Positions 49,951 through 57,049 of a DNA stretch of 64,000 nt are shown in pieces; positions within the stretch are counted from its first letter, which is position 1, and the number at the start of each line of letters is the position of its first letter. The position numbers were made by a program, and so were the translations under genes. This stretch comes from Candidatus Marinacidobacterales bacterium (GTDB lineage Bacteria > Acidobacteriota > Vicinamibacteria > Marinacidobacterales > DATDRI01), in the NCBI GenBank assembly GCA_965226495.1, contig OZ245365.1:416001-480000 (forward strand). Direction: 5' to 3'. The notes beneath the pieces are model-generated. The model did not search any database and was not told the DNA's origin. It was given only the letters and a program-made list of their open reading frames with translations.

Positions 49951-49996
49951 TGAGCCTCCATTAATTAATGCTCGCTCGCCTCGTTCATCCAATAGT

Positions 49997-50078
49997 GCGA
50001 TGGGGCCCCACCCCCATCGCTAGTCGCTTCGCCCCTTCGCGCTCCGCGACAGCTGAGGGCTCATCGCTCGCAGCCCTC
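49997..50078. repeat. Structured REP-like element (GGGGCCCCACCCCC hairpin + CAGCTGAGGGCTC)
   Basis: GCGATGGGG-ccccac-CCCCATCGC perfect stem; motifs recur at 58781 and 60445-60533. Confidence 0.75.
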
Positions 50079-50228
50079 GCTCTTCAATCAATGGTGCGGG
50101 GCTGCGCTCGGGCCAAAAAACATAGCTGTTGCACCTTACAAATGCCACAATTTGGGCCCGACATGCAAGTCCCGTGCGGAGGATGTACTCTATGGGTTGG
50201 CGATGGACACTATTTGCGGAGGCGATCG

Positions 50229-50852
50229 ATGAGCTTTCTCCTTTCTTTCATGCTTTTCCTGGCAGCCCCACCGACTCCGACGGCATCGAGCGCGGAGGAG
50301 GCCGGCAAAACAACTATCTTGGTGGCCTACTACTCCGAAACCGGGAATACCGAGTCGCTGGCTAAGGCAATCGTGGAGGGGATCTCCTCGGTTCCAACTG
50401 CCGAGCCCATTTTGCGGAACGTTTCTGAGGTGAAGGACGAGGACATTCGGAAGGCGGACGGCATTCTCGTGGGCACCCCGGTCCAATGGGGCGGTCTCAG
50501 TGCCCGTGCCAAGGACTTTGTGGATCGAGTGGGTCGCGTATTGGGTGAAGGCGAGGGACAACACGGGGAAGGGCGAACGGCGGGCGCGTTCTGCACCGGG
50601 GGAGCTGTGGCGTCGGGCAAAGAGCTCGCTAGAATGGCGATCCTAGCCGCCTTTATGAACATGCGTTTTGTCGCGGTCGGAGGTCTCCTCGCGGACGGGT
50701 TAGGCAGCCTCGGCGCGGAAGCCACTACCGGGCCCGCCGATCCGGGACTTTCGGAGAAAGAGTTGGGGGAGGCGCGCCTGGCTGGCGAACGCTTTGCTCG
50801 GATTACACAGGGGTTTCGGAAAGCGCGGGCCCTTAGCCCAACACCAAACTAA
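50229..50852 (+). CDS. WrbA/flavodoxin family protein with hydrophobic N-terminus
   Basis: YYSETGNTESLA, ADGILVGTPV, AGAFCTGG; GGAGG RBS before ATG 50229. Confidence 0.85.
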   Translation: MSFLLSFMLFLAAPPTPTASSAEEAGKTTILVAYYSETGNTESLAKAIVEGISSVPTAEPILRNVSEVKDEDIRKADGILVGTPVQWGGLSARAKDFVDRVGRVLGEGEGQHGEGRTAGAFCTGGAVASGKELARMAILAAFMNMRFVAVGGLLADGLGSLGAEATTGPADPGLSEKELGEARLAGERFARITQGFRKARALSPTPN

Positions 50853-51049: not shown

Positions 51050-52213
51050 TCAACAACAGTCTCCATCCGGGCCACAGTACGGCGCGTCGGTCGTCTCGGT
51101 GACGTTATACTCCGTGCCCTTGGTCTCCTTCGGGTGTCGTACGGCGTCTTTCCGACAATTGAACGGAGCCGCTTCCGATAGGGGAGTGTCCTCGTAGGGT
51201 TCCAGCGGCTCGATCGTGCCGCGGTAGGGCTCTGAGCTATAGATGTGAAAGGTCTTGTCGCAAACCGCCATGCGCTGGCCTCGGAACAGAGTGTGGCCGT
51301 CGTCGTCGGTCACGCTGCGCCAGGGTCCCTTATAGATGACAGCCTGGTGGCGTTCGAGGCACGGACCTTCCTTTCCCTTGAAGGCTTCGACGGTCACGGC
51401 GCGGAACTCGATCCCCTCTATCGTTTGCCACGGCGTCTCGTCGCGTTTCAATACTTGGATTCCGTAGAATCCGGCTTCTTGAAAAGCGGTCAGGAAGTGA
51501 TCCTCCCGAAAGGCCCCGGACAGACAGCCGCTCCATAGCTCCGCATCAGCCTGAAGGTGAGCTGGCACGTCCTCGTCGCTCACGATGTCCGAGATCACAA
51601 CGCGACCGCCTTTCCTGAGGACACGATGCATTTCTCGAAAGAGCTCGGTCTTGTCCTCGGGCCGGACTAGATTCAGCACGCAGTTGCTCACCACCACGTC
51701 GGTCGACGCCGTGGGGACCATCGGGTGGTTTCGTCGTTGGTCCTCCTTCCAGCTCTCTAGAGCTTCGAGCTCATTCGCAGTTGTGACGGGGTGCTCGGCC
51801 AGGTAGTGCTCGAGCTTTTCATAGTCTAGGGCGAGGTCTTGAATCTTGCCTTTGTGAAAGGCGACGTTGTGATAGCCGAGCCGATCGCCGATCTCCTGAC
51901 GATAGCGTCGCGCCAGGTCGAGCATCTCGTCGTTCATGTCAACGCCGATGACCTTGCCCTCCGTTCCGACAACTTGGGCGGCGATGTAACAAACTTTGCC
52001 TCCGCCGCTTCCAAGGTCGAGGACCGTCTCGCCCGGGCGAAGGTGCTTGGAGGGGTCTCCGCATCCGTAGTCGCGCTCTAAGATCTCCTTGGGGAGAGCA
52101 TCGAGATACTGTTCTGCGTATTCCACAGGGCAGCAAAGGGCGTCTTCTTTTGCGGAAGCCGCCCTCGAGTAACGGTCTTTGACGGCGTGTTCGACGTTGG
52201 AACTGTCAGCCAT
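51050..52213 (-). CDS. ArsM/AS3MT-like arsenite S-adenosylmethionine methyltransferase (extended)
   Basis: LCCPV, DYGCGDP, VLDLGSGGG, SNCVLNL, WSGCLSGA; Cys-rich tail CGPDGDCC. Confidence 0.85.
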   Translation of the reverse strand: MADSSNVEHAVKDRYSRAASAKEDALCCPVEYAEQYLDALPKEILERDYGCGDPSKHLRPGETVLDLGSGGGKVCYIAAQVVGTEGKVIGVDMNDEMLDLARRYRQEIGDRLGYHNVAFHKGKIQDLALDYEKLEHYLAEHPVTTANELEALESWKEDQRRNHPMVPTASTDVVVSNCVLNLVRPEDKTELFREMHRVLRKGGRVVISDIVSDEDVPAHLQADAELWSGCLSGAFREDHFLTAFQEAGFYGIQVLKRDETPWQTIEGIEFRAVTVEAFKGKEGPCLERHQAVIYKGPWRSVTDDDGHTLFRGQRMAVCDKTFHIYSSEPYRGTIEPLEPYEDTPLSEAAPFNCRKDAVRHPKETKGTEYNVTETTDAPYCGPDGDCC

Positions 52214-52249: not shown

Positions 52250-53062
52250 CTAGAACTTGCCTCGTTTACGTTCCTTTGAGGGCAAAATCTCCAGACACGT
52301 CGTCCACCATCCGGTGAGGACGGTGTCGATGAACTCCTGAGGTAGTCCCTCGCTATTCATTTCTTGGGCGAGACTGCGGTAGTCGTATTCGAGCGGCACG
52401 AACTCGACGGACAACCCTTTCCGGCTCTTCTGGCCCTTCCGTGCATCCAGTATCGTGTACCAAACATGCGTATTACCGTCGTTCTCCGGCCGCCCGATGA
52501 CCCCGACATTGACGACGTGTCGGTCTCCCGGAACTTCGCGCTTCCAGTGAATGCCGGTATGGGTCGTGAGCACGACATCCGCCTCATGTTCTTGGAGCAG
52601 ACGGTCCAGAAAGTGAGTGGGTGTCGTCGACTCCCATAGAAACTCGTTCATCTTGCGTGGTGAGCCGTGGCTCATCAGAAGACGATGGCTACCCAGTTGG
52701 ATACGAAAAGACTTTGGTAGTCCACGCATCCACACTTTCCAGCGGTCGGAGGTGTTGGAGAACGTGTAGTCATAAGAGATTTTGGCGAAGTAGTTGTCGC
52801 GGGGATCGACATAGCCACATTGGCAGTCGGCGAGCCCCTCTCCGATCGAGTTGTCATAGTTGCCCTGCATCACCTGGACGCCGGCGTCCAACAGAATCGG
52901 AAACACTTTGTCCGGGTTGGGGCCGAAGGCGCCGAGGTCGCCCTGACAGAAGATCGCCTCCACTCCTCGCCGCCGCGCGTCGTTCACCGCTGCCTCGAGC
53001 GCGAGGTGGTTGCTATAGACGCCGCCGATGGCAGCGATCCTTTCGTAGCGCTCAAGAGACAT
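52250..53062 (-). CDS. Calcineurin-like metallophosphoesterase, atypical motifs
   Basis: GGVYSN, GDLGAFG, GNYD, SHGSP, THTG, NVGVIG. Confidence 0.85.
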   Translation of the reverse strand: MSLERYERIAAIGGVYSNHLALEAAVNDARRRGVEAIFCQGDLGAFGPNPDKVFPILLDAGVQVMQGNYDNSIGEGLADCQCGYVDPRDNYFAKISYDYTFSNTSDRWKVWMRGLPKSFRIQLGSHRLLMSHGSPRKMNEFLWESTTPTHFLDRLLQEHEADVVLTTHTGIHWKREVPGDRHVVNVGVIGRPENDGNTHVWYTILDARKGQKSRKGLSVEFVPLEYDYRSLAQEMNSEGLPQEFIDTVLTGWWTTCLEILPSKERKRGKF

Positions 53063-53957
53063 CGCGGCCTCCGGAGCTCAGATTGCTGCAGATGGCCCCT
53101 CCCACGTAACAGGTGTAACAGGCACTGTGCTTGAGAGGGTAGGGTTCGGCCGATTCGGCCAGCGTGGATCCCATCCTCGCGTCCGGCGAATCGATGAGGA
53201 TCGGGCAGACGTAGACGCCTCGGTCGGTGGCGACCCGACTGTGGGAGCAGATGAGTTGGGAGGCGTCGAAACCCAACATCATGTCTGATGTCACCCGTTC
53301 CGTATCGGTGTAGGCACGCGACCTCTCTTCTTCGGCGCCGATGCGTAAGGTCGGGATGATCTTGATGCGGGGACGAGAGTAGCCTTCCGCCTTTAGTATT
53401 TCGACGAAACGTTGAAACACTTCGTCGTCCCGACCGTCTTCCCAAGTCTGGGCCACTGTGATGATGGGGAGGAACCCATGGGTCAGTAGGAGCCGAACGC
53501 CGTCCATGGCTTTGCGAAAGGTTCCTGCCCCTCGGATGGGATCGTTCATCTCCGGGGAGTACCCATCGATGCTGACGCGAAACTCGAGCGAATAGGGCGA
53601 TATCGCCTCCGCCGCAGCGAGACGCTCCACCTGCTTGGGCTTCATCACGGTGGCGTTGGTGAGGACGGTCGCGGGGCCGATCGAAAGCGTGGCTTCGAGG
53701 ACCTCGACCATGTGGGGATGGATGAACGGCTCCCCGCCTGTGAAGTAGTACTCCTTGACCCCCAGCGATTTCGATTCCTCGAGGAGGCTCTCGATGGCTC
53801 CGAGGTCCATGAGCTCGAACGCGTGGTTGGTCGGGCTACAGGAGATGAAGCAATGGGCGCAGGTCAGGTTGCAGAGCGTTCCCGATACCTGAAACCAGAG
53901 GTCGTCGAGCGCACTCAAGGCGACTCGCGGGGGAGCTTCGGCGGTCCGGGTCGTCAT
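53052..53957 (-). CDS. Radical SAM enzyme
   Basis: CNLTCAHC, FTGGEPF, RVSIDG; additional C-terminal Cys cluster. Confidence 0.92.
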   Translation of the reverse strand: MTTRTAEAPPRVALSALDDLWFQVSGTLCNLTCAHCFISCSPTNHAFELMDLGAIESLLEESKSLGVKEYYFTGGEPFIHPHMVEVLEATLSIGPATVLTNATVMKPKQVERLAAAEAISPYSLEFRVSIDGYSPEMNDPIRGAGTFRKAMDGVRLLLTHGFLPIITVAQTWEDGRDDEVFQRFVEILKAEGYSRPRIKIIPTLRIGAEEERSRAYTDTERVTSDMMLGFDASQLICSHSRVATDRGVYVCPILIDSPDARMGSTLAESAEPYPLKHSACYTCYVGGAICSNLSSGGRDVS

Positions 53958-55174
53958 GACGCGTACCGATCCACAGCAGATGTTTTTTCGATCGAGCTGA
54001 AGATCTCTCGAACTTGCTCGAGCCCGATCCGAATCAAGAAGTTGGAGTTCTTGCCATAGCTCTTCGAGCCGAGGACAAAGAAATTCGGTTCCGGGTTCGC
54101 AAGGACATCGGCCCGGTGGAATTCATTGGCAAGGCAATCCGCCGAGCTCGACCCGAGAAGAGCCGCCGAAAGCTTCATCGGGCCCATCGACGCATAACAC
54201 TCATGCATCTGGAGCTCCCGATAGATTCGGTTGTCCGGATGGTAACCCACGTAGGCCAAGATGCGATCGACCACGATCGTCTCTTGGCTTCGTGTCCCTA
54301 TGGAGCGAAGCTCGACCGCGAACGATTCTCCTCTGCGCGTCTTCCTCGTCAGGCGCTCGACGAGGGTGGCAGGATGGTACGCGACCCTAGGATTCCCGCC
54401 TTTGGCAAGCTCGTTGGCCTTCGCGGAAAGCCGAGCCCTTTCGGGAAGTGGATCATCCGGGAAGATGGGTAGGGGAGGCTTCTCGCCGGTTTGGGCAATC
54501 CACGTCACTGACGTGTTTGGCAATTGGGTGAGCGCATCGAGTGCCGTGGCGGCGGAGTGCCCGCTGCCGACGAGGAGAACTCGCCGCCCCGAGTACTGCT
54601 CGCGTTTCTCGCCCAAGAGGTCCTGCACGGTGTAGGCGATCTGCTCACGGAGCTCTATTTCGCCCAGAGCCGGGATGTTGCCGTTGCCCATCCAGTTGTG
54701 ATGGCCGTAGGTTCCGGAACAATCGATCACGATGTCTGCCTCGGCGATCTCTTCTCCTTGCTCCCGCTCGAGCAGAATGCGAAACGGATGGCGGTCCCGA
54801 GGACCACCGATCAGATCTTTCTTGCCGATACCGTCTCTCCCGACGTATAGCACTTCGACTCCCTCTCGAATGCAGTTTCTCAGCGGTTCGGTTTCGGCTA
54901 GGGGCCGAAGGTATCGCTCCACGTGCTGTCTTCCCGTCAGGTAGTCGTTCGGCCCGGGCAGAGGTCGGCCCGCTTCCCGAAGCGTCTTCGCTCCAAGCTC
55001 GGAGTGGTTGAGCTCCCAGCATGAGAAGAGGGTGATATGTCCCCATCGATTCATGTTCTCGCCGATGGTTCCTCGTTCGTATACCTGAACCCGATGACCG
55101 AGAGCCTGGCCGTGTAGGGCGGCTTCGAGGCCGACGGGGCCCGCGCCGATAATCGCAATACGTTTCCCGGGCAT
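53954..55174 (-). CDS. FAD/NAD(P)-dependent flavoprotein monooxygenase, ars-operon (ArsO/ArsV-like) type
   Basis: GAGPVG, DCSGTY, GSGHSA, EPNFFVLGSKSYG...FL...GLEQVR; GGAGGAG RBS. Confidence 0.8.
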   Translation of the reverse strand: MPGKRIAIIGAGPVGLEAALHGQALGHRVQVYERGTIGENMNRWGHITLFSCWELNHSELGAKTLREAGRPLPGPNDYLTGRQHVERYLRPLAETEPLRNCIREGVEVLYVGRDGIGKKDLIGGPRDRHPFRILLEREQGEEIAEADIVIDCSGTYGHHNWMGNGNIPALGEIELREQIAYTVQDLLGEKREQYSGRRVLLVGSGHSAATALDALTQLPNTSVTWIAQTGEKPPLPIFPDDPLPERARLSAKANELAKGGNPRVAYHPATLVERLTRKTRRGESFAVELRSIGTRSQETIVVDRILAYVGYHPDNRIYRELQMHECYASMGPMKLSAALLGSSSADCLANEFHRADVLANPEPNFFVLGSKSYGKNSNFLIRIGLEQVREIFSSIEKTSAVDRYAS

Positions 55175-55231
55175 AAACTCCTCCCCGCACAAGGCGGGAA
55201 TTATAAATAGAGTGGAGATCTAAGACGGACT

Positions 55232-55273
55232 GCCCGCCTTCGCTTGGGTTAAGGGGCTGTAGCTTCGGCGGGC
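55232..55273. repeat. REP-like hairpin in the DUF2064-flavoprotein spacer
   Basis: GCCCGCC(TTCGC)...(GCTTC)GGCGGGC inverted repeat. Confidence 0.6.
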
Positions 55274-55282
55274 TGGGGCCGT

Positions 55283-56029
55283 TTAGGCCGTGGCCTCAGG
55301 CGGAGCGCGGGGGGTAAACCACCTGGCGAGGAAAACCTGCCGATGTTCGGTTTCGGCGGATCGGTGGCCGGTCGATTCGGGGAGGAGCAGATTTGTGATC
55401 CGCCGTGCTAACGAAGCGAGACATCCCCATCGCGAGCGGGTGAGAAAGCGAGTCAGCCCGCGTCGGTCGTCGATATCTTCGAGCGAGGAAAGTGTCTCGA
55501 CCACGAAACCACTTCCGACGAGGCGCGCTTGCGTGAGCTGCGCAACCTGCGAAGATCCCCACGGCATGGACTCGAATGCTTCGGGGCAAGGTGTCGTAAG
55601 TCCGAGCAGGGCGTATCCGCCGTCCTTGGCCGGACCGAGCACCGCCGCGCGAGGGCCAGATGAGGCAAGGGCGTCGAACGCGTTTCCCAGGTAACGTCGC
55701 GAGATCTCCGGAGAATCGTTGCCAATTACCACGACGCGGCGGTAGCCCAGCGAAAAGGCGTCGTCGACTGCCAGTCGTAACGACTCGCCGAAGCTCCGGC
55801 CTCGCTGTGGGAGGACGTTCCGCCGCCGGTTTTCAGCAAGCTCTGAAGACAGCGGGGTGGCGATGAGGAGATCCACGTCCTGGAGCCCACCGCAAACGTT
55901 CTCCAAGTGGTCGAGAAGAACCGCGAACACGTCGGCGGCTCGCTCCGGCCTTCCTAGGCCGAGCGACTTCCTACGACCCTCCGCTTCGGGAGACAGCGTA
56001 AACAGAATGAGTGCGGATTCGGATCCCAT
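55283..56029 (-). CDS. DUF2064/TIGR04282-like GT-A (glycosyl/nucleotidyltransferase) protein with C-terminal RAPP motif
   Basis: PQRGRSFGESL, VVVIGNDSP, LGPAKDGGYALLG, MPWGS, LEDIDD; tail ...FTPRAPPEATA*. Confidence 0.85.
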   Translation of the reverse strand: MGSESALILFTLSPEAEGRRKSLGLGRPERAADVFAVLLDHLENVCGGLQDVDLLIATPLSSELAENRRRNVLPQRGRSFGESLRLAVDDAFSLGYRRVVVIGNDSPEISRRYLGNAFDALASSGPRAAVLGPAKDGGYALLGLTTPCPEAFESMPWGSSQVAQLTQARLVGSGFVVETLSSLEDIDDRRGLTRFLTRSRWGCLASLARRITNLLLPESTGHRSAETEHRQVFLARWFTPRAPPEATA

Positions 56030-56257
56030 CGTTCGCAATCTACAAGGAGAGCATGCTTCGGTCTATGGAAAGGCTCACACCCGGCGCAGAAAGACCTGCA
56101 CCCACCATTCTTATCACTGGCCGCTAGGGGGGTCAACGAGAAGCTCCCAAACGAGGCCGTGCCAGTCCCAAGGTGGTCGGGGGCCCCAACTCGCCTTTGG
56201 AAAATAGGGCGCTACGGAATATGCTGTGGCGAACGCAATAGGGAGAAAGAAGCATAG

Positions 56258-57049
56258 ATGCCCCCAATAACCAATCGGGAGTTCCTCGATTTCGCCATGG
56301 ATGCCGCCTGGCAGGCCGGTCAGTTCACGCTCGCGCACTTCCAAACCGGAGTCGACGTTGAATGGAAAGTGGATGAATCCCCTGTCACAGCCGCCGATCA
56401 GGGGGCAGAGAGGCTGATCCGAGAGCTCATTGCTCGCCGTTTCCCGGGTCACGCTGTTTTGGGCGAGGAGTTCGGTGAGGCGGATACAGACTCGTCGCAT
56501 CGCTGGATCATCGACCCCATTGACGGCACCCAGTCCTTCATCCGAGGGGTTCCTCTCTATGGAGTGCTGATCGGGCTCGAGGTAGCCGGAGACGTCATCG
56601 TTGGTGTGACTCACTTTCCGGGGCTTCAAGAGACGATCGCCGCCGCCAAAGGCGAAGGGTGCCGATGGAATGGCCGGGTTGCAAGGGTCTCTCGTGTATC
56701 GCGCCTCGAAGAGGCTTTGGTTGTTCATACCGAGGTGACGACCCTCGAAGACGAGCGTACCCGCGCCTCCTGGAATCGCATCAAGGCGGCGTCGCGCCTC
56801 CAACGCGGCTGGAGTGACTGCTACGGCCATTGTTTGGTTGCGACGGGAAGAGCGGAGGTGATGCTCGATCCGCTCATGAAGCCTTGGGACTGTGCTGCTC
56901 TCGTGCCCATTCTCGAAGAAGCGGGTGGTACGTTTACCGACTGGGATGGTAAGTCGACCATATACGGCGGCGACGCCATCAGCACCAACGGTTTGCTCTT
57001 CGATCAGGTGAAGAAGATGCTGGAGCAGACTTCGGTCTCTTCAGTGTAA
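56258..57049 (+). CDS. hisN: Histidinol-phosphate phosphatase (inositol monophosphatase family)
   Basis: SPVTAAD, GEEFG, WIIDPIDGT, WDCAAL. Confidence 0.8.
   Translation: MPPITNREFLDFAMDAAWQAGQFTLAHFQTGVDVEWKVDESPVTAADQGAERLIRELIARRFPGHAVLGEEFGEADTDSSHRWIIDPIDGTQSFIRGVPLYGVLIGLEVAGDVIVGVTHFPGLQETIAAAKGEGCRWNGRVARVSRVSRLEEALVVHTEVTTLEDERTRASWNRIKAASRLQRGWSDCYGHCLVATGRAEVMLDPLMKPWDCAALVPILEEAGGTFTDWDGKSTIYGGDAISTNGLLFDQVKKMLEQTSVSSV

Follow-up and report, generated by a model that had tools for sequence, protein, structure and literature searches.

A conserved C-terminal RAPP/RGPP tail on a clade of DUF2064-family proteins is a candidate ribosome arrest module ahead of co-directional genes

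We examined a 64,000-nucleotide (nt) stretch of contig OZ245365.1 from a Candidatus Marinacidobacterales bacterium of the Acidobacteriota (GenBank assembly GCA_965226495.1, positions 416,001 to 480,000 of the forward strand), referred to here as the window. One of its open reading frames (ORFs; 55283-56029, minus strand, ATG at 56029) encodes a 248-amino-acid (aa) protein of the DUF2064 family (Pfam PF09837) whose C-terminus reads ...ARWFTP-RAPP-EATA*, with RAPP four codons before the stop. By sequence comparison, the C-terminal tail is a trait of one clade, apart from canonical DUF2064, and the tailed clade has the defining sequence features of the RAPP/RGPP arrest-peptide class, with a CruR-like logic. 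Based on analogy with characterized members of that class, we consider it likely that ribosomes arrest at RAPP, and on balance probable that the tailed protein combines arrest with regulation of the downstream gene in cis. A motif kept at a fixed distance throughout a clade, always before another gene, suggests a domain that controls downstream genes during its own synthesis.

Conservation of the motif

The arrest-type core consists of R241, A242, P243, and P244 (55298-55309, minus strand; Arg codon at 55309-55307, Ala at 55306-55304, and Pro at 55303-55301 and 55300-55298). Four variable tail codons, EATA, and a TAA stop at 55285-55283 complete the reading frame (together 55283-55297, minus strand, from the sequence). 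The initial annotation of this DNA had singled out RAPP in the ending WFTP-RAPP-EATA*, and we found it strongly conserved in orthologs, database homologs, and distant relatives. In 61 related genomes, all 11 full-length orthologs (51-100% identity) carry RAPP, or RGPP in locus L006, 3-7 residues before the stop, and the linker before the motif diverges among them. The orthologs at L037 (Acidobacteria bacterium Mor1) and L038 likewise end in the motif, giving 13/13 orthologous loci (L001-L011, L037, and L038; the core loci). Distant relatives with genomic context, at 27-34% identity, have it in seven of seven cases.

The same pattern held in protein databases. Among the best 120 of 131 matches from a homolog search (P0001-P0120), the 60 closest (P0001-P0060) include 57 with R[AG]PP at 1-8 residues from the end. 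Of the other three, P0051 is a fragment at a contig end, P0058 is a piece of 173 aa, and P0059 seemingly derives from a disrupted gene. R[AG]PP is found in none of the 60 canonical proteins of ~200 aa that make up the rest of those 120 (P0061-P0120). Among the 29 best-matching loci from 401 Acidobacteriota genomes (L112-L140), 24 are canonical DUF2064 genes from which the tail is absent and five have R[AG]PP, four of these being relatives at 30-34% identity. The genome's own paralog, a second DUF2064 gene (L153, 218 aa) that is canonical and has a convergent neighbor, is without R[AG]PP.

A clade-wide profile (alignment A3, 24 sequences) was searched against 1.84 billion representative proteins. 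Of the best 150 (E <= 3.3e-46), 111 have R[AG]PP in their last 16 residues, and P0162, not counted among these, has its RAPP 14 residues from the end. Another 34 carry RPPP (7), RSPP (1), HAPP (1), KAPP (9), KSPP (4), KPPP (3), or [LI]PPP (9), and among the tails inspected the K and L/I forms are preceded by WQ or Q. The remaining four comprise two fragments, one protein ending WQIPRP, and one that looks canonical. R[AG]PP or a close xxPP variant is thus found in 145 of the 150, and the tailed clade is large, spanning at least 145 clusters at 50% identity. P243 and P244 are invariant in A3, two prolines among only 12 invariant columns of which the other ten are fold residues; in alignment A1, R, P, and P are all invariant. 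Position 2 of the core is A or G, with rarer RSPP and H-x-PP, and the portions of the literature available to us class variants of the RSPP/H-x-PP type as arrest-competent or avoided. Conservation of a C-terminal RAPP/RGPP in cluster-leading DUF2064 homologs despite a divergent linker had been put forward in the initial annotation as a check on its proposal; the outcome was positive, and it extends well past the cluster leaders for which the check was framed.

At loci with DNA, the Arg of the motif is written CGC, CGG, CGT, AGA, or AGG, and Ala, Gly, and Pro appear in all four of their codons. Because every synonymous codon occurs across the clade, we ruled out a nucleotide-level RNA element and attribute the conservation to selection on the peptide. 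The motif is also avoided in this genome: in 4447 long ORFs, RAPP occurs 17 times and RGPP 10 times, each the rarest of its 12 permutations, and 7 of the 27 R[AG]PP occurrences fall within the last 15 residues of an ORF. This matches the pattern of proteome-wide avoidance and C-terminal enrichment described by Fujiwara et al. 2025 in the available text of PMC12992588.

In the core subfamily, the Ala codon of RAPP (window 55304-55306) is GCT at 10 loci and GCA at 2, and never GCC or GCG, which together make up 74% of this genome's Ala codons; the Gly codon of L006 is GGT. The bias is absent from distant loci, where GCC, GCG, and GCT are used. It could be due to shared ancestry or to local pairing with the Shine-Dalgarno (SD) sequence (GCU-CC gives CUCC).

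A transposase family of this genome also has RAPP close to its C-terminal end. An IS91-type Y2 transposase (L148:581-1915(+), 444 aa, Pfam Y2_Tnp and Zn_Tnp_IS91) ends in ...NRHNRAPPQQPPLSLRA, and two ORFs of 157 and 160 aa (L149:579-1049(+) and G000:C1:824307-824786(+)) have identical C-termini ending in ...SRQRAPPQPTLNLH; the one of these that was scanned matched Y2_Tnp. RGPP stands in the last 15 residues of three further ORFs (L150:2584-3735(-), L152:2204-4252(-), and L151:2549-3193(-)), which are an FAD oxidoreductase of the DAO family (...RFRGPPSIPEYNVI), a thioredoxin-like DUF255 protein with RGPP as its very last residues, and a 214-aa ORF without a Pfam match.

A fixed distance between folded domain and motif

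The 248-aa protein, which has an identical database entry (P0001), is a DUF2064 member by its Pfam score (93.5 bits, cut-off 25.8). On the NCBIfam model TIGR04282, for an arsenosugar-biosynthesis glycosyltransferase, it scores 116.5 bits, under the curated cut-off of 134, and the alignment begins at profile position 23, leaving the N-terminal loop unmatched. That N-terminus, FTLSPEAEGRRK, deviates from the canonical FAKaPxpGxvKTRL loop, in agreement with the earlier remark that the usual AKxP..GxVKTRL motif is missing. The tailed clade shares the loop FTLsPeAEgrRKpLG, as opposed to FAKaPxpGxvKTRL in canonical DUF2064. The fold motifs GxDxP, DGGY, W, and DxD are retained in the tailed clade, so the protein is probably functional after release.

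An AlphaFold2 model built from A1 has a mean predicted local distance difference test score (pLDDT) of 90, with blocks up to residue 220 scoring 87-98 and the last helix at residues 205-215. In Foldseek, the DUF2064 structure PDB 3cgx matches it best (E 3.7e-18; template modeling score 0.75/0.80), over 231 alignment columns, and the next matches are the CofC/FbiD guanylyltransferases 7p97 and 6bwh. The model and these matches delimit a folded nucleotidyltransferase/GT-A-like domain at residues 1-215 (55385-56029, minus strand). Residues 5-10, at the N-terminus, make up the opening beta-strand of a soluble alpha/beta fold, and no localization signal is visible in the model, no dedicated signal-peptide predictor having been run. 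Residues 216-248 are predicted to be disordered. They include a linker at residues 216-240 (55310-55384, minus strand), with a pLDDT of about 50-65, whose length but not sequence is kept in the alignment, and a tail that is modeled as undocked from the domain.

We measured how far the final Pro of the motif lies from the DxD strand, a distance termed the ruler. Across 143 diverse representatives its median is 57 residues (interquartile range 55-59, range 50-75), and every motif class sits at the same distance. It is exactly 57 in 31 of 50 close homologs and 54-60 in seven of eight distant RxPP proteins; at L147 our script measured 53 to an upstream PPP, and a hand count to RAPP gives about 58. 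For the window protein, R241 is 53 residues past the last D of DIDD (residues 185-188), where some 52 had been estimated at first. In the same 143 representatives, mean pairwise identity drops from 0.35 for the domain to 0.16 for the linker, and 1-14 residues follow the motif (median 4, never 0). The C-terminal extension of the clade is about 45-50 residues long, and only the four-residue core is conserved in it.

By analogy with CruR, ApdA, and ApdP, the predicted stall occurs with Pro243 at the P site while Pro244 occupies the A site. In this state, the end of the canonical DUF2064 domain (about DxD+12 to +15) falls ~41-44 residues away from the ribosome's peptidyl transferase center (PTC). 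Force-profile work, in the portions of PMC13639035 available, describes domains that start folding and pulling the nascent chain ~40 residues from the PTC. We infer that the stall is timed to domain emergence.

An approximate, unrooted FastTree phylogeny of the domain columns only (143 rows, with the truncated P0051 and P0059 dropped) places 79 untailed rows on one side of a branch with support 86 and all 64 Pro-tailed rows on the other, and requires only 2 changes, the fewest possible. A trio of proteins with WQLPPP adjoins the distant RxPP group (support 84) and has rulers of 57, 57, and 60. Four canonical proteins were caught by a loose regular expression; their LxPP stands ~13-17 residues after the DxD, and they were rejected as not having the ruler tail.

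In one sub-lineage (P0061, P0062, P0064, P0123-P0134, and others; L154-L156 and L164), WQLPPP, WQK(A/S/P)PP, or QKSPP replaces R[AG]PP at the same ruler distance. An alignment of this WQ-type group (A4, 27 sequences) has an invariant Gln at -1 and both prolines invariant. Polyproline stalls are usually sensitive to elongation factor P, and this group may therefore be regulated differently.

In one genome of the same family, the ortholog (L013, G003:C2:1055563-1055924) is present as two short pieces only, matching query residues 2-62 at 69% and 68-120 at 77% identity. It is probably a disrupted gene, and P0059 may be a similar product.

A co-directional gene follows the tailed gene

Under one uniform heuristic, the longest downstream ORF was co-directional at 22 of 22 evaluable tailed loci, compared with 37 of 91 canonical loci. 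The same flavoprotein gene lies directly 3' of the tailed gene at 13/13 core loci, and at L037 and L038 it stays next although the radical SAM (S-adenosylmethionine) and phosphoesterase genes of the cluster are now on the opposite strand. In distant Acidobacteriota the next gene encodes a TonB-dependent receptor-like barrel (L141 and L143), a phosphate-selective porin (L144), an ArsM-like enzyme (L145), a radical SAM enzyme (L146), a solute-binding protein (L147), or a protein without an assigned family that has a signal-peptide-like start (L142). Ten more tailed genes were found on metagenome contigs of 31-53% GC, mostly AT-rich, where no recognizable SD precedes the next gene. Seven downstream ORFs on these contigs were scanned: four encode TonB-dependent receptors (L158, L178, L208, and L220), one a porin (L156), one a protein with a weak symporter-like match (L155), and one a member of the same flavoprotein family (L154). 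Two others run off the contig, and that of L164 is too short to call. The tailed arrangement occurs in Acidobacteriota as well as on AT-rich contigs.

The initial annotation had envisaged that an arrest peptide, coupled to a folded domain that might sense a ligand, gates an arsenic-like operon. The coupling of domain and arrest motif fits the ~57-residue ruler, the disordered AlphaFold linker, and the CruR precedent. The tie to an arsenic-like operon did not survive, since in other lineages the tail precedes TonB-dependent receptors, a phosphate-selective porin, a solute-binding protein, and a radical SAM gene. Similarly, the tailed gene leads the cluster in the window, as had been described, and elsewhere it is not always first in its operon (L145 and L147).

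Possible routes from a stall to the downstream gene

The end of the tailed gene carries a C-over-G (C>G) bubble like that at the rut site of CruR. The peak 78-nt window, a rut-like stretch with (C-G)/78 = 0.256, takes in the stall site together with the stop codon and the beginning of the spacer (55240-55318, minus strand) and is centered 30 nt 3' of the Arg codon. Among the 4447 ORF ends of this genome, this ranks in the top 1.9% by maximum and the top 1.0% by the mean over -20 to +30. All three lineage groups show the bubble: from near 0 in the gene body, (C-G)/78 climbs to +0.19 to +0.21 (GC-rich groups) or +0.12 to +0.14 (AT-rich group) in windows centered -20 to +30 nt from the Arg codon, and declines by +60 to +80. 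The peak reaches at least 0.115 at 24 of 25 loci, with L208 at only 0.051. Rho itself is encoded in this genome (721 bits, above the cut-off).

The flavoprotein gene starts after a 108-nt intergenic spacer (55175-55282, minus strand, read from the sequence), with an SD, GGAGGAG, at 55184-55178 and an ATG at 55174-55172 (together 55172-55184, minus strand), a start backed by aligned ortholog starts. A small GC hairpin, UUCCCGC-CUUGU-GCGGGGA, abuts or overlaps this SD (55182-55200, minus strand) and is part of the minimum free energy (MFE) structure. Of the 13 core loci, 12 have an SD-abutting GC hairpin at the same place. A joint fold of 10 of these shows a CCGC/GCGG core that is conserved and not co-varying, with a double change in one of five pairs. 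Strong complements between the stall footprint and the SD region exist at L004 (8 bp) and at L037/L038 only, the latter about 12 bp by count with G-U at the one difference. SecM-like unmasking of the SD is therefore weakly supported at the core loci, and on the analogy with CruR, Rho antitermination of that kind fits better.

L006 (G014) differs from the other core loci: its 164-nt spacer contains a strong hairpin as well as a stem that leads into a seven-T run and resembles a terminator.

Proposed mechanism

We propose that a RAPP/RGPP arrest module forms a C-terminal extension fused to a complete, folded, cytoplasmic nucleotidyltransferase-fold domain. The ribosome would stall while its P-site tRNA carries ...R-A-P (ending in Pro243) and Pro-tRNA (Pro244) occupies the A site, at which point the ruler, a distance that is itself observed, would hold the canonical domain end ~41-44 residues from the PTC. 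A lasting stall would then permit expression of the co-directional downstream gene or genes. The likeliest route would have the stalled ribosome shield the C-rich, rut-like stretch from Rho, as in CruR, and we put this forward tentatively. An alternative or additional route in SD-using Acidobacteriota, in which the stalled ribosome would keep stall-site codons from pairing with the downstream SD region, seems unlikely. Release, the least certain step, may come from folding, possibly ligand-assisted, of the emerging DUF2064 domain, so that the nascent protein would be the sensor; we regard folding or ligand binding as a conceivable trigger, offered as tentatively as the Rho route.

The expectation of arrest itself is high, given that translation arrest was found for all seven C-terminal RAPP/RGPP proteins of Streptomyces lividans whose downstream gene is co-directional, including one that lacks a localization signal (available text of PMC12992588).

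A more specific and rather doubtful extension is that the tailed protein acts as a natural force sensor, in which the ~57-residue ruler would hold the enzyme fold at the tunnel exit and ligand-dependent folding would pull the RxPP arrest open. The ligand could be, for example, a nucleotide or a substrate of the phospho- or arseno-acid type. How long the stall lasts would then determine Rho access or exposure of the ribosome-binding site (RBS) for uptake genes (TonB-dependent receptors, the phosphate-type porin, and the binding protein) and for organoarsenical-like biosynthesis genes. If true, this would be a protein-domain analog of a riboswitch, with the pulling force coming from outside Sec/YidC.

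Several points count against arrest with downstream control. The loci behind the co-directionality count are related and not independent samples, and the tree, unrooted and made with FastTree only, places P0060, an RGPP protein, beside the untailed group. Published work, in the portions available, indicates that RAPP alone is insufficient, that upstream residues matter, and that arrest can be species-specific. The C excess is due in part to Pro, Ala, Ser, and Arg codons in the disordered tail, and whole spacers are not C-rich and G-poor, the bubble being seen only in windows centered on the stall site. The SD window is mostly paired in our models, and a modeled stalled ribosome, with its footprint held single-stranded, raises SD accessibility at only 3 of 11 loci. 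Pairing between the stall footprint and the SD region ranks in the top 3-19% of upstream windows at 13/13 loci and is never the best. Finally, the conserved linker length and motif could also serve a function at the protein level.

Alternative explanations

This last point leads to the alternative that survives best, although we judge it improbable: that the RxPP tail is a protein-level motif, such as a polyproline-type docking peptide or an active-site lid, and that any pausing is incidental and not regulatory. A tail reaching a fixed site would also need a conserved motif at a set distance from the domain, and the fold motifs GxDxP, DGGY, W, and DxD are kept as an active protein would have them. 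Set against this, only the four-residue core is conserved in a 45-50-residue extension whose linker has 16% identity, the tail is predicted to be disordered and undocked, and the permitted variants mirror arrest-competent cores. One sub-lineage has WQ[KL]xPP or LPPP in place of R[AG]PP at the same distance. The genomic setting also counts against this alternative, in that the downstream partners vary widely while the tail stays constant, the next gene is co-directional in 22/22 tailed versus 37/91 canonical cases, and elsewhere in this genome no permutation is avoided more than RAPP and RGPP.

Slightly less probable again is a programmed pause that serves the DUF2064 protein alone, through co-translational folding, cofactor loading, or assembly, with no control of downstream genes. 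The ruler sets the pause at the moment of domain emergence, as such a role would have it. A self-serving pause leaves unexplained why a co-directional gene so strictly follows, why the motif lies 1-14 residues from the stop, and why the C>G bubble is centered on the stall; moreover, canonical DUF2064 proteins of the same fold manage without a tail.

We consider it very unlikely that a three-segment alternative hairpin in the spacer (1:2 and 3:SD versus 2:3) acts as a switch over the RBS that is thrown by the stalled ribosome, as the initial annotation had proposed. Every RNA segment and complementarity that it described is present in the window, as is the TATAAT. Segment 1 (GCCCGCC, 55273-55267) pairs with segment 2 (AAGGCGGGC, 55240-55232) in a stem that belongs to the MFE structure (55232-55273, minus strand); segment 3 lies at 55200-55191, GCGGGGA at 55188-55182, and TATAAT at 55205-55200 (all minus strand). 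Segments 2 and 3 are partly retained in L002, which is 86% identical. The folding energy of the 161-nt region is, however, unremarkable (-56.1 kcal/mol, z = -1.18, with 25 of 200 shuffles folding as well or better), and the 1:2 stem is confined to L001, L002 having a different hairpin and L003-L011 none. Segments 1 and 2 are both absent from L003-L011, whose spacers measure 44-68 nt (164 nt in L006), so that the arrangement belongs to the closest relatives only. Segment 1 lies outside the modeled ribosome footprint, a concern that had been raised when the switch was proposed. In addition, the SD opens at just the 3/11 loci noted above, and tailed genes on AT-rich contigs have no recognizable SD before the next gene.

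Two side suggestions about the spacer also fell away. The 1:2 stem is not a repetitive extragenic palindromic (REP) element, as the 108-nt spacer has no second copy in the genome and gives only 13-19-nt chance matches. The TATAAT, suggested as an internal promoter, is not conserved in L002, and no promoter-like or terminator-like site was called in the spacer by our scan, which for promoters covers sigma-70-type sites only. A search for Rfam families in the spacer gave none, with only a sub-threshold snoU54 match (E 0.76).

A chance origin of the motif is effectively refuted by the comparative data: composition predicts about one functionless case of RAPP near a C-terminus per genome and this genome has 7, but conservation of the motif extends over more than 200 homologs, some as distant as about 27% identity, with its spacing fixed and its synonymous codons varying freely.

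The gene cluster in the window

The tailed gene and the cluster that follows it all lie on the minus strand of the window. The flavoprotein is a 406-aa FAD/NAD(P)-binding oxidoreductase of the pyridine-nucleotide-disulfide type (53954-55174; Pfam Pyr_redox_3 and Pyr_redox_2). It is followed by a 301-aa radical SAM enzyme (53052-53957; Pfam Radical_SAM), whose nearest NCBIfam models, the Rv1681 family and ArsS, both score far under their cut-offs, and by a 270-aa metallophosphoesterase (52250-53062; Pfam Metallophos_2). The fourth downstream gene encodes a 387-aa ArsM-like SAM methyltransferase (51050-52213; Pfam Methyltransf_31) with a score of 352 bits on its nearest model, NF040538 for arsinothricin-type ArsM (cut-off 500), and a Cys-rich C-terminus (...YCGPDGDCC). 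The chemistry of this cluster, with its radical SAM enzyme, phosphoesterase, flavoprotein, and ArsM-like enzyme, has no characterized pathway assigned to it.

Upstream of the DUF2064 gene lies a divergent histidinol-phosphatase-like gene. A sigma-70-like promoter match upstream of the DUF2064 gene (56107-56136, minus strand) agrees with the consensus at 9 of 12 positions and is a consensus match only; it is the sole such match in a scan of 55000-56400. Convergent with the end of the cluster is a flavodoxin/WrbA-like ORF with a long N-terminal extension (49968-50852, plus strand), which also adjoins the cluster in L032 and L034.

Comparison with known arrest systems

The RAPP/RGPP arrest peptides known so far are mainly small leader proteins that are secreted or lie in the membrane. 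What is new here is that a candidate arrest core is linked, through a conserved ruler, to an entire cytoplasmic enzyme-fold domain, in a widespread arrangement that precedes genes for uptake and biosynthesis. The arrangement supplies a candidate regulatory logic for poorly understood radical SAM/ArsM-like clusters and the associated uptake genes, and it implies that motif screens limited to hypothetical small proteins may miss arrest modules on annotated enzymes. We found no paper linking DUF2064 to arrest; the text of PMC12992588 contains 0 occurrences of DUF2064, glycosyltransferase, or arsen, and its supplementary tables might list such proteins.

The closest precedent is CruR (DUF2946) of Bordetella pertussis, a RAPP-bearing upstream ORF before a TonB-dependent receptor gene. 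As described in the available parts of PMC9426467, RAPP three residues from the CruR C-terminus stalls the lead ribosome and so denies Rho access to a C>G bubble, which extends from the ORF's unstructured 3' end to the spacer. The stall is relieved when the nascent chain senses copper, and how far the sensing motif lies from RAPP is important. The arrest was confirmed in PMC12992588, again in the portions available. Like CruR, the tailed gene has RAPP a few residues before the stop, a C>G bubble at the ORF end and spacer, and a position ahead of co-directional genes, in a genome that encodes Rho; at L141, L143, L158, L178, L208, and L220 the next gene even encodes a TonB-dependent receptor. 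Unlike CruR, it shows no sequence or fold relationship to DUF2946 and no CXXC (PF09837 is the only Pfam match). CruR is described as small (RAPP at 139-142) and poorly structured, with a signal peptide and copper sensing through CXXC, whereas the tailed protein would use as its sensor a complete cytoplasmic nucleotidyltransferase-fold domain of ~200 residues without a signal peptide.

With ApdA, ApdP, and the wider RAPP/RGPP class (available text of PMC10951233, PMC10987492, and PMC12992588), the tailed protein shares the core R-(A/G)-P-P (residues 241-244), its position near the C-terminus, a co-directional next gene, and avoidance of the motif in the proteome. It also has the two-module build described in the discussion of PMC12992588, a strict core preceded by a variable, contributing adjacent segment on the N-terminal side (linker identity 0.16). 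In those sources the class consists mostly of small secreted or membrane monitoring substrates that are pulled by Sec or YidC and encoded upstream of sec/yidC or metal-homeostasis genes. The tailed protein is instead cytoplasmic and of an enzyme family, and a conserved ruler connects its motif to a folded domain. Its soluble fold, with no localization signal visible in the model, and a flavoprotein as the downstream gene product set it apart from the Sec/YidC monitoring substrates SecM, MifM, VemP, ApdA, and ApdP. SecM-secA resembles it in having a related core, RAGP, and a stall that controls the next gene in cis; in the portions of PMC10987492 and PMC10951233 available, the SecM stall opens an SD-masking helix, and the secreted leader is released by SecA-driven translocation. 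Such a helix does not appear to be conserved at the core loci.

CutF of Rhodobacter capsulatus is similar in that translation of a protein with a proline-rich C-terminus controls a downstream gene in response to a metabolite; it is described in the available text as exported and sensing extracytoplasmic copper (bioRxiv 10.1101/2022.11.11.516240 and 10.1101/2025.02.05.636593). Canonical DUF2064/TIGR04282 proteins ('rSAM/selenodomain-associated transferase 1') share the fold, the core motifs, and radical SAM and ArsM-like neighbors, but they are about 200 aa long, end soon after DxDxPxDL, have no RxPP tail, and keep the FAKaPxpGxvKTRL loop.

In architecture, the tailed protein matches force-profile constructs, which, in the portions of PMC13639035 available, likewise combine a domain, a linker, and an arrest peptide with the domain end ~40 residues from the PTC. 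Those constructs are artificial laboratory fusions; the tailed protein would be a natural one with a regulatory output. Because its arrest core stands at a fixed distance from a defined, modeled fold, variants in ruler length, domain stability, and ligand can be built, which makes the question of what releases the stall directly testable.

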